In this document: positions 46,837 to 54,146 of the stretch, in pieces
How the letters are laid out: the number at the start of each line of letters is the position of its first letter
How positions within the stretch are numbered: the first letter of the stretch is position 1
NCBI GenBank assembly: GCA_040384665.1
Contig: JAZKIY010000016.1
Coordinates: forward strand, 11,334 to 75,333
Length of the DNA stretch: 64,000 nucleotides
Source of the DNA: Pseudomonadota bacterium
GTDB lineage: Bacteria > Pseudomonadota > Gammaproteobacteria > Burkholderiales > Burkholderiaceae_C
Reading direction: 5' to 3'
Made by a program: the position numbers and the translations under genes
Notes under the pieces: generated by a model
Database searches by the model: none
What the model saw: only the letters and a program-made list of their open reading frames with translations
What the model was told of the DNA's origin: nothing

Positions 46837-47820
46837 TCATTGCTGTTGCTGTTGCTGTTGCTGTTGCTGTTGCTGGCCTTGCGCCAAGTTGTCTTCCAGC
46901 GGGGCCACGGTCACGCGGACGGTGAGCACGTGGTCGGCGCCGCCGTGGATGACGCCGCGGACCGGGGACACGTCGGCGTAGTCGCGGCCGGTGGCAACGG
47001 TGATGTAGTCCTCGCCGGGGGAGCGGTTGTTGGTCGGGTCGAGGTCGATCCACTGGCCCACGGGCGCGGGGCCGCCGGCGGAGAGGTCGGCGTCGGCCGG
47101 CAGCGCGCGTGGCAGGTAGATCGCCGCCCACGCGTGGGACGCATCGGCCCCCACCAGCCGGGCCTGGCCGGGCGGTGGTTCGGTGAGCATGTAGCCGCTG
47201 ACGTAGCGGGCCGGCAGGCCGAGCGCGCGGCAGCAGGCGACCATGATGTGGGCAAAGTCCTGGCAGACGCCGCGCCGCTGCGCCAGCGCCTCCAGCGCCG
47301 GGGTGTTGACCTCGGTGCTTTTGCTGTCGTATTCAAACTCGTGGTGGATGCGGTCCATCAGCGCGGCGGCGGCCTGCAGCAGTGGCCGGCCGGGGGTGAA
47401 GCTGCCGCGGGCGTACTCGGCAAACGCCTCGTTGCGCGGCACGTAGGGCGAGGCAAACACAAATTCGGCCGCCGGGTCATACGGTGCACCGACCTGGTAG
47501 CGCATGCGTTCGCGCACCTGCTCCCAGCTCTGGGCGGCGTCTTCTGGGTGCGGCAGGGCGGGCGTTGGGCGGGTGGAGACGATGCTGTCGGCCACCACGG
47601 TGAGCGCGTCGTGCGCGTTTTGCAGCGAGAAAAAGGCCCGCGTGTTGCCATACACGTCGCGGGTTTCGCTGCGCGTGTCAGACGCGGGGCTGATGTGCAG
47701 GTGGTGCGCCAGCACCTGCTGGGTGGCGGTGTCCAGCGGCTTCAGGTGCGCCATGTGCTGCGCGGTCCTGACCGCAGGCGCGTAGTCGTAGTGGGTTTCG
47801 TGGATGACGCGGAGCAGCAT
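46837..47820 (-). CDS. transglutaminase-like cysteine protease family protein with poly-Q C-terminus
   Basis: Bact_transglu_N-like start [13 protein letters not shown]. Catalytic triad context [27 protein letters not shown] / [10 protein letters not shown] / WIDLDPTN. Ends in ...[15 protein letters not shown]. Confidence 0.85.
   Translation of the reverse strand: [327 protein letters not shown]
46840..46875 (-). repeat. (CAGCAA)x6 perfect tandem repeat encoding Q12
   Basis: The plus strand reads (ttgctg)x6 immediately after the stop codon complement at 46837-46839. Confidence 0.95.
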
Positions 47821-47846
47821 GGCGGGCTTTCAGTGGCCTGGGGCTT

Positions 47847-53600: not shown

Positions 53601-54146
53601 GTCGCGGCAGGAGCCGCTGGCGTTGGTCAGCGTTTCTTCCGGCGACTGCACGCCGGGCTCCATGCGGATCAAATAATTGATGTCGCGCGCCACCTGCTGG
53701 TTCAGGGCAACCAGGAAATCAATGGTGCGGCGGGGTGTGCGGTCGATCGCGTCCAGGTAGGTCTGCAGCATCGGCGTGGCGGGGCCGGTGATCAGGTATG
53801 GCGCGAGTTCCTGCTTCTGCGTTTCGCTGTAGGTGAACGGGAAGGTTTCCGCGTTGGGTTCGAGGAAGAAGTCGAACGGGTCGTAGACCGACATCTCGGC
53901 CACCATGTCCACCGTGACCTTGAACTCGGTGACTTTTTCGGGAAACACCAGCCGAGCCAGGTAGTTGGCAAACGGGTCCTGTTGCCAGTTGATGAAGTGG
54001 CCCACCGGCTCGACCTTGAGCGAATACGAAATGATGTTGCTGCGGCAGTGCGGCGCCGGGCGCAAACGCACCACTTGCGACCCGAGCGTGACCGGTCGGT
54101 CGTACTTGTAGTGGGTGATGTGGCTGAGGGCGGCGTGGATCGACAT
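50604..54146 (-). CDS. large transglutaminase-like protein (Bact_transglu_N + transglutaminase core + DUF2126-type C-terminal region)
   Basis: ATG 54146 gives [18 protein letters not shown]. Catalytic context [27 protein letters not shown] / [22 protein letters not shown]. About 1180 aa. Confidence 0.8.
   Translation of the reverse strand: [1180 protein letters not shown]

Follow-up and report, generated by a model that had tools for sequence, protein, structure and literature searches.

A conserved ATP-grasp, Alpha-E and transglutaminase gene cluster with a predicted sigma-54 promoter in a Comamonadaceae bacterium

Overview

We analysed a 64 kb stretch of a Burkholderiales genome (GenBank assembly GCA_040384665.1, contig JAZKIY010000016.1, positions 11,334 to 75,333 of the forward strand; hereafter the window, with coordinates counted from its first nucleotide), in which three minus-strand genes, here called P1, P2 and P3, encode a large transglutaminase-like protein ending in a DUF2126 region, a fusion of a circularly permuted (CP) ATP-grasp with an Alpha-E domain, and a smaller transglutaminase-like protein. 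The locus is an intact, typical ortholog of a widespread known cluster whose domains and neighbourhood were described in 2008–2009, when it was predicted to form or trim bonds of peptide type, and which is among the most widespread bacterial multi-enzyme systems without a known reaction. To an initial annotation of this DNA that had singled out the three genes, we add a second, standalone pair of ATP-grasp and Alpha-E genes that, judging by conserved neighbourhoods, belongs with P1–P3; the five genes can be read as two triads, split here by comEC. P1–P2–P3 are preceded by a predicted sigma-54 promoter, and the cluster probably belongs to the nitrogen-starvation response, by analogy with a Burkholderia relative. 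We put the general picture, that of a nitrogen-regulated ligase/amidase system comprising five genes, at about an even chance of being right, and any specific substrate far lower. The features that carry the argument are as follows.

46837–47820, minus strand: P3, 327 aa
47847–50522, minus strand: P2, 891 aa, GTG start
47886–48863, minus strand: Alpha-E domain of P2, residues 554–879 (Pfam)
49008–50183, minus strand: circularly permuted ATP-grasp of P2, residues 114–505 (Pfam)
50604–54146, minus strand: P1, 1180 aa, counted from the ATG at 54146
50604–53294, minus strand: DUF2126 region of P1, residues 285–1180 (Pfam)
54211–54226, minus strand: predicted sigma-54-type −24/−12 element TGGCTCGCGTCTTGCT, ending 65 nt upstream of the P1 ATG
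56776–56791, plus strand: weak sigma-54-like element GGGCCTGAAACTTGCT, 25 nt upstream of the standalone ATP-grasp ATG
56817–58280, plus strand: standalone circularly permuted ATP-grasp, 487 aa (Pfam CP_ATPgrasp_2, 2e-167)
58311–59270, plus strand: standalone Alpha-E, 319 aa (Pfam Alpha-E, 4e-99)

Operon structure and conservation

The open reading frame (ORF) list bears out the arrangement first described, three minus-strand genes separated by gaps of 81 nt (P1–P2) and 26 nt (P2–P3). The longest ORF for P1 (50604–54173) opens at a TTG at 54173, and its first ATG, at 54146, is preceded by a GGAA box and coincides with the gene call in a 96%-identical relative. No terminator-like site was found in either gap, all terminator-like matches being intragenic, and a sigma-70 promoter scan gave no site. 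Rfam at gathering score returned nothing across 44–60 kb, so no riboswitch or leader RNA is evident there.

For comparison we aligned P1 with 27 diverse representatives, collected 80 genomic loci from beta-, gamma-, alpha- and delta-proteobacteria, Acidobacteria, Verrucomicrobia and Planctomycetes, and mapped the window's proteins onto them by tblastn (individual loci are numbered with an L). The order P1–P2–P3 is kept across the surveyed taxa, which span several phyla. ATP-grasp and Alpha-E are both present in 69 of the 72 loci with at least 3.2 kb of sequence downstream of P1, and form a single fused ORF in all 69; P3 comes next after P2 in 64 of the 68 loci with at least 4.3 kb. The distance from the P2 stop to the P3 start is mostly −4 to +30 nt, with a 4-nt overlap in 11 loci. 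Because of this conserved order with short gaps, and because neither gap holds a terminator, the three-gene operon is well supported, as far as sequence analysis permits; both the operon and the co-conservation anticipated for it thus came through the neighbourhood survey. No other gene is conserved across lineages among the 80 loci.

Some neighbours recur without being general. A gene combining a zinc-ribbon (PF10005) with Peptidase_Mx (PF15887) adjoins the cluster in six loci (L004, L022, L023, L025, L027 and L061) from Paraburkholderia/Caballeronia, an Acidovorax and a Vicinamibacterales genome, and in L061 it heads a same-strand array of six genes; it is a real but rare neighbour, and is absent from the window. 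An ABC transporter recurrent in 10 loci was dropped, as its members were scattered at unrelated positions and only that of L079 was adjacent.

Domains and active sites of P1, P2 and P3

Pfam searches confirmed the domains proposed for all three proteins, and all six of the active-site motifs read from the sequence at the outset, including DLDPTN, were found in the translations; NCBIfam gave no match for any of the three. In P1, Bact_transglu_N (5e-25) and Transglut_core (8e-17) are followed by a full-length DUF2126 (E=0, 1323 bits, profile positions 1–826 of 826), the architecture of the DUF2126/Rv2566 family. P2 matches CP_ATPgrasp_2 (4e-138), CP_ATPgrasp_1 (5e-93) and Alpha-E (4e-56), and P3 matches Transglut_core (1.5e-23) and Bact_transglu_N (5e-22). 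Together with the operonic linkage, the CP ATP-grasp, the Alpha-E ER motif and the Cys–His–Asp triad described below place the cluster in the ATP-grasp/Alpha-E/transglutaminase system. The initial annotation was right to attribute that system to the Aravind group (Iyer et al. 2009): papers on the proteasome homologue Anbu credit the ATP-grasp/Alpha-E/transglutaminase system to the same work, and Iyer et al. 2008 (PMC2588565) describe the Rv2566 family.

Residues 9–275 of P1 align to P3 over the entire transglutaminase module, with Cys180/His229/Asp245 of P1 corresponding to Cys186/His229/Asp261 of P3. The P1 triad is unchanged in 79 of 79 orthologs and the P3 triad in 68 of 68, while the two GRxxER motifs of the P2 Alpha-E domain (G565 R566 E569 R570 and G723 R724 E727 R728) are at least 97% conserved among 71 orthologs. 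The invariant triads suggest that P1 and P3 are catalytically competent, and the GRxxER motifs suggest the same of Alpha-E. Further afield, the P1 cysteine is retained in 23 of 28 distant representatives, some distant relatives having lost it. Clustered at 50% identity, the P1 family numbers 3,008 clusters with E<=1e-30 and 12,178 with E<=1e-3, the larger count probably including proteins that match the transglutaminase region alone.

The nearest solved structures are structural-genomics entries that carry no assigned function: the ATP-grasp half of P2 matches PDB 3n6x (E 8e-79), deposited as a putative glutathionylspermidine synthase, and P3 matches 3isr (E 1e-16). P1, P2 and P3 all lack hydrophobic segments, which makes them soluble and most likely cytoplasmic, and P3 has no signal peptide either.

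The DUF2126 region of P1 may be a second type of ligase. Iyer, Burroughs and Aravind described the Rv2566 family in 2008 as a transglutaminase fused to a carboxylate-amine ligase (PMC2588565), and our structural models point the same way. In the AlphaFold (AF2) model of full-length P1 (pLDDT 83.9, pTM 0.84) the transglutaminase part matches 3isr (E 1e-13, TMt 0.75), and weak glutamine synthetase (GS) matches rank behind transglutaminases. When residues 285–1180 were modelled alone (pLDDT 81.7), nearly all of the ~45 best PDB matches fell in the carboxylate-amine ligase superfamily, the best at E 1e-2 with a TMt of ~0.3 and probabilities reaching 0.98; these Foldseek matches include YbdK (E 1e-2, probability 0.95), glutamine synthetases, gamma-glutamylmethylamide synthetase (GmaS), a 1-naphthylamine GS-like enzyme and the depupylase Dop. 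DUF2126 therefore resembles GS-type carboxylate-amine ligases weakly but consistently in its predicted fold, and the coherence of the match list agrees with the profile-based assignment of 2008. We did not find fold-level support of this modelled kind for a GS-like DUF2126 core stated in the literature searched.

The GS/GCS2 (YbdK)/GmaS/PafA–Dop superfamily thus supplies nearly all the fold matches of the DUF2126-only model. DUF2126 differs from its solved members in showing no detectable sequence similarity to them (TM-scores ~0.3), in being about twice as long, and in having a predicted disordered insert and, in the model, a C-terminal beta-sandwich region. The insert, at about residues 561–680 of P1 (52107–52466, minus strand), is rich in Ala, Pro and Gly and variable among homologues, with a column identity of 0.02–0.19 and a pLDDT of ~30; as modelled, it is predicted to be disordered and to divide DUF2126 into two well-folded halves. 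Elsewhere DUF2126 has invariant Glu, His and Arg residues, among them E420, E433, E456, H495, H503, R553, R605, E607, E627, R629 and E632, numbered from the first residue of the DUF2126-only sequence.

At its other end the operon carries a short repeat:

46840–46875, minus strand: hexanucleotide repeat (CAGCAA)x6 (TRF: period 6, 6.0 copies, 100% match)

The repeat encodes a C-terminal tail of 12 glutamines on P3, which in the 96%-identical relative is Q6 (L081:16140-16265). SQ- or Q-rich tails end P3 in several other Comamonadaceae (L002, L003, L006, L007 and L031) and in none of the other taxa. The tail could be a substrate or pseudo-substrate, or could reflect plain replication slippage.

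The standalone pair and the five-gene unit

On the far side of comEC from P1–P3 lies a second ATP-grasp gene followed by a second Alpha-E gene, with no transglutaminase gene of their own. The start of the ATP-grasp is the ATG at 56817, which has an AGGAG box upstream and agrees with the 487-aa gene call in the relative L081; the TTG at 56787 that opens the longest ORF was rejected on the same grounds. The standalone ATP-grasp is 33% identical to the ATP-grasp half of P2, and the standalone Alpha-E 26% identical to its Alpha-E half.

Of the 63 loci that offer 5 kb or more of upstream sequence, 32 have the standalone pair no further than 10 kb from P1. In 11 loci it immediately precedes P1 on the same strand, at a distance of 26–251 nt, giving contiguous five-gene clusters in Ideonella, Caballeronia, Marinobacter, Vicinamibacterales, Desulforhopalus and others; in three loci it is divergent and adjacent, in two it lies downstream, and in Comamonadaceae comEC separates it from P1, as in the window. 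Wherever a standalone ATP-grasp occurs in the surveyed loci, a standalone Alpha-E accompanies it. These neighbourhoods indicate that the pair belongs with P1–P3: the three genes stand where the initial annotation placed them, while the functional unit reaches on to 56817–59270.

The contiguous order is ATP-grasp, Alpha-E, P1, P2, P3, so that the P1 transglutaminase fills the slot taken by the transglutaminase in the classical ATP-grasp/Alpha-E/transglutaminase(/Anbu) operon. The system accordingly reads as two triads: an unfused one, whose transglutaminase carries DUF2126 as an added region, and one in which ATP-grasp and Alpha-E are fused. For experimenters, this split of the parts by comEC means that a knockout or expression construct limited to the three genes would be incomplete.

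In one Burkholderia sp. locus (L014, 10001–11000) a further small transglutaminase gene separates the standalone Alpha-E from P1, and the tblastn match to the P1 gene there contains one in-frame stop, a frameshift or an assembly error.

A predicted sigma-54 promoter and nitrogen regulation

We looked for a sigma-54 promoter because of literature on induction by nitrogen limitation and because a Bradyrhizobium RpoN study had predicted a site before a CP_ATPgrasp gene. The element TGGCTCGCGTCTTGCT has the −24 GG and −12 GC at the proper spacing, lies upstream of the first gene in the 136-nt spacer between comEC and P1, and is the sole match in the 64 kb window with at most one mismatch to TGGCAC-N5-TTGCW. 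Sigma-54-like matches are not enriched window-wide (one found against 5.5 expected by shuffling), and the case for the promoter therefore rests on position and conservation.

Scanning up to 250 nt upstream, with GG and GC fixed and at most two mismatches allowed, we found that 44 of 77 loci have the motif before P1, where chance predicts 0.043 per locus; in the controls the count was 11/77 for the antisense strand, and the regions before P2 and P3 had 1/73 and 7/66. Across 13 Comamonadaceae upstream regions that are otherwise unalignable, TGGC.C, TTGCT and the ATG alone are invariant. Where the standalone pair lies directly upstream of P1, the P1 site is missing, and in several such loci (L014, L015, L029, L051 and L057) a site stands before the ATP-grasp instead, a relocation that fits a single five-gene transcript. 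We conclude that the predicted promoter at 54211–54226 would drive P1–P2–P3. Its conservation across several phyla is not something we found stated in the literature searched. With an intergenic region of only 136 nt, any NtrC-type sites upstream would fall inside comEC.

For the divergent unit the picture is fainter. The motif (at most two mismatches) precedes the standalone ATP-grasp in 20 of 35 loci. The nearest counterparts of GGGCCTGAAACTTGCT at the same position are TGGCC(C/T)TGAACTTGCT (L002 and L003) and TGGTCCTGAACTTGCT (L008), and other relatives have different sigma-54-like matches before this gene.

The closest published parallel is a cluster of Burkholderia cenocepacia H111, I35_5080-83 (BCAM1233-36), annotated as DUF404/407, DUF403, a transglutaminase and a 'large transglutaminase protein', whose transcripts stand at −6.0 to −9.4 (units as in the paper's table) in an ntrC mutant under nitrogen limitation, and which is also sigma-54-dependent (PMC5491218). 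Its components and gene order are those of the contiguous form of the cluster, in particular of Burkholderia locus L014, where the sigma-54 motif likewise stands before the first gene and the extra small transglutaminase between Alpha-E and P1 matches the four-gene annotation. The window's cluster differs in lacking this additional gene, a feature of the Burkholderia arrangement, and in being split by comEC into two divergent units. The classical Anbu operon is also induced by nitrogen limitation according to the Anbu papers, that of Pseudomonas putida (PP_2685-88) by 11–37 fold, and the P. putida promoter has served as a nitrogen biosensor. In marine metagenomes, moreover, the cluster's domains co-vary with domains of urea metabolism and utilisation. 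By analogy with these homologues, the cluster probably belongs to the nitrogen-starvation response. The initial annotation had held that no substrate, product or phenotype was established; in the literature searched this still holds for all three, but regulation is another matter, as the B. cenocepacia match lies in the NtrC/sigma-54 regulon.

Comparison with known systems

The DUF2126 family was first described in 2008 with Mycobacterium tuberculosis Rv2566 as the example. Compared with the Rv2566/Rv2567/Rv2569c-type cluster of that species, the three genes here lie on one strand with only the two short gaps between them; in M. tuberculosis the small transglutaminase gene presumably lies on the opposite strand, with an extra gene between.

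The classical Anbu operon (for example P. putida PP_2688-PP_2685 and that of Yersinia bercovieri; Iyer et al. 2009, Valas and Bourne 2008) agrees with the cluster in its three domain families and in their order, and the window's standalone pair at 56817–59270 is of this type. The present cluster departs from that operon in the fusion of ATP-grasp and Alpha-E in P2, in the ~900-residue ligase-like DUF2126 region appended to one transglutaminase, and in that no Anbu-like gene was seen near it, by searches not aimed at Anbu. The Anbu peptidase is a frequent but not obligatory fourth gene of such operons.

A third likeness is one of mode of action, not of membership. Escherichia coli GspSA joins an ATP-dependent amide synthetase to a papain-fold cysteine amidase that reverses the bond, a logic like that which we propose below, and the nearest solved ATP-grasp, 3n6x, bears the name of such a synthase. 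The amidase here would be of transglutaminase fold and not CHAP: Pfam at E<=0.01 returned CP_ATPgrasp, Alpha-E and transglutaminase families only, and neither GSP_synth nor CHAP.

Proposed function

We propose the following scheme. Under nitrogen starvation an NtrC-type activator would switch the genes on, as in the B. cenocepacia cluster. The two ATP-grasp modules and the GS-like DUF2126 module would each activate a carboxylate as an acyl-phosphate and couple it to an amine, so that a peptide, protein or amine substrate gains an (iso)peptide bond, of gamma-glutamyl or some other type, with Alpha-E as a substrate-holding or regulatory partner of ATP-grasp. The two Cys–His–Asp domains of transglutaminase fold would hydrolyse or transfer the amide so formed, each ligase thereby being paired with an amidase in the manner of glutathionylspermidine synthetase/amidase. 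Since GS-type enzymes make gamma-glutamyl amides and transglutaminases act on them, the fusion in P1 suggests that a gamma-glutamyl-type linkage is first formed and later resolved. The system would thereby serve to capture or remobilise nitrogen; the GS-like gamma-glutamylation routes for amine assimilation offer an alternative likeness. That the ATP-grasp of a related operon hydrolyses ATP (PMC6376114) is in keeping with the ligase part of the scheme.

Several points weigh against this proposal. Searches of PDB by sequence, both with P1 and with the 28-sequence profile, gave transglutaminases only and no ligase, and the GS-type ligases that Foldseek matched to DUF2126 scored weakly (E ~1e-2, TMt ~0.3). 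The second promoter candidate, GGGCCTGAAACTTGCT, has three mismatches to the consensus, although its GG and GC are properly spaced. NtrC dependence is carried over from another genus, and it is not obvious why starving cells would turn to ligases that consume ATP. The literature searched holds no paper that assigns a reaction, substrate or product to the family and no published assay of ligase activity for a DUF2126 protein. In Yersinia, co-expression and pull-downs with Anbu as bait revealed no complex with the other proteins of the operon, and the Anbu tested there was without peptidase activity (PMC6376114). In the most recent test, lysates containing Rv2567, which had been chosen as a candidate partly for its ATP-binding domain, or Rv2411c made no gamma-aminobutyric acid (GABA)-trehalose.

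Alternative explanations

The best-placed alternative is the original Iyer–Aravind reading, in which the cluster is a dedicated biosynthetic line, not tied to nitrogen salvage in particular, for a small metabolite resembling a non-ribosomal peptide, for instance a gamma-glutamyl peptide or a conjugate of a polyamine; residues would be added one after another by the three ligase modules, and the transglutaminases would mature or recycle the product. Glutathione synthesis, which pairs a GCS-type ligase with an ATP-grasp ligase, offers a precedent, and the inventory of three amide-forming and two papain-fold modules, the name under which 3n6x was deposited and the occasional Peptidase_Mx metallopeptidase neighbour (6 loci) all suit it. 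We nevertheless regard it as rather unlikely, given that no exporter, carrier or tailoring gene is conserved beside the cluster in the 80 loci, that Pfam (E<=0.01) shows no GSP_synth match, and that both the sigma-54/NtrC control and the association with urea genes speak for a role in nitrogen economy.

Somewhat less probable again is a pupylation-like system of protein tagging and turnover, in which the ligases would couple single amino acids or short peptides to carboxylates or lysines of target proteins, isopeptidases or deamidases of transglutaminase fold would remove it, and degradation would recycle amino acids in nitrogen starvation. In mycobacteria the Pup–proteasome system supports survival of nitrogen starvation. 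Here the DUF2126-only model matches Dop among others, PafA and Dop being GS-type ligases; sister operons carry the proteasome homologue Anbu; and nitrogen limitation induces the system in homologues. Yet a Pfam search of the larger ORFs between ~34.7 and 63.7 kb, not one aimed at Anbu, gave no Anbu-like or proteasome-family match, and neither a Pup-type tag gene nor a recurrent proteasome-type family appeared among the 80 loci, which share no conserved extra gene. The gaps of 81 and 26 nt are too small for a tag gene, Iyer et al. 2008 likewise saw no Pup-like ORF (PMC2588565), and Anbu, the bait in the Yersinia pull-downs, recovered none of the operon proteins as a partner (PMC6376114). A bolder variant, which we hold to be doubtful, is a hitherto unrecognised nitrogen-starvation pathway of Gram-negative bacteria that acts on proteins and not on small molecules, a pupylation analogue that does without Pup: the ligases would glutamylate or otherwise tag cellular proteins, enzymes of transglutaminase fold would deamidate or de-tag them, leading to ammonia release or breakdown, and the glutamine tail of P3 would be a (pseudo-)substrate. 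Were the products indeed protein modifications, this would be a new post-translational system tied to nitrogen economy.

Two further proposals fit the evidence poorly. The first would make P3 alone a secreted serine protease of broad specificity, its operon context incidental, on the model of Rv2569c, which we take to be the small transglutaminase-like protein of P3 type in M. tuberculosis. This we consider very improbable: P3 has neither signal peptide nor hydrophobic segment, keeps its Cys–His–Asp triad in all 68 orthologs and is translationally coupled to P2 across phyla, and the organism is an environmental member of the Comamonadaceae. The activity of Rv2569c is blocked by 4-(2-aminoethyl)benzenesulfonyl fluoride (AEBSF) and phenylmethylsulfonyl fluoride (PMSF) and not by E-64 or N-ethylmaleimide (NEM), and in the available text of the report the assignment to the serine class is backed by these inhibitor data only (PMC11081392). 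Least probable of all is a mobile anti-phage defence or toxin module, an idea that draws on the frequency with which unknown multi-enzyme clusters prove to be defence systems, against which stand the lack of any PADLOC match for the five proteins, the housekeeping neighbours (parE/parC, comEC, rimP–nusA–infB), the stable synteny in Comamonadaceae, a G+C content not below the window average, and a sigma-54-type promoter shared with nitrogen-regulated homologues.

For the nitrogen-regulated ligase/amidase system that we favour, experimenters now have as handles nitrogen limitation as an inducing condition, a parts list of five genes, and the catalytic residues Cys180 (P1) and Cys186 (P3) as sites for trap mutants.

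Genomic setting

The best homologues of P1 are those of Comamonadaceae, at ~80% identity in Ramlibacter and Variovorax and 94–98% in further assemblies. One flank of the cluster holds a gyrase-B-type gene (probably parE), an SLT transglycosylase gene, parC, a pyridoxamine-oxidase-like gene and a RidA gene; the other holds comEC, rimP and nusA, within a housekeeping run rimP–nusA–infB. The G+C of the cluster is at or above the window average and its synteny is steady across Comamonadaceae; the locus is chromosomal and non-mobile.

The gene nearest to P3 belongs to this first flank:

46294–46761, minus strand: RidA/YjgF-family gene (Pfam Ribonuc_L-PSP, 9e-15), 75 nt downstream of P3

The stretch separating P3 from this RidA gene showed no terminator, and the two may be co-transcribed. 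RidA follows P3 by 20–400 nt in ~14 loci, all of Comamonadaceae type, and lies on the far side, beyond comEC, in loci of Ideonella/Rubrivivax type. Because its place relative to the cluster shifts between lineages, we take it to be probably a syntenic passenger and not a component. A 'putative endoribonuclease' gene (PP_2689) adjoins the P. putida Anbu operon, as quoted in PMC3325844, and the proximity of RidA may be a coincidence or a genuine link to imine/ammonia chemistry.

The lowest G+C in the window (0.58) falls at 44001–46000, between the pyridoxamine-oxidase-like gene and parC. This region holds two plus-strand ORFs that lack Pfam matches, one (44040–44609) starting with a hydrophobic stretch and the other (44765–45580) seemingly hydrophobic throughout. 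It looks like a small strain-specific insertion, since in the 96%-identical relative (L081:16818-18487) the same interval is only ~465 nt.

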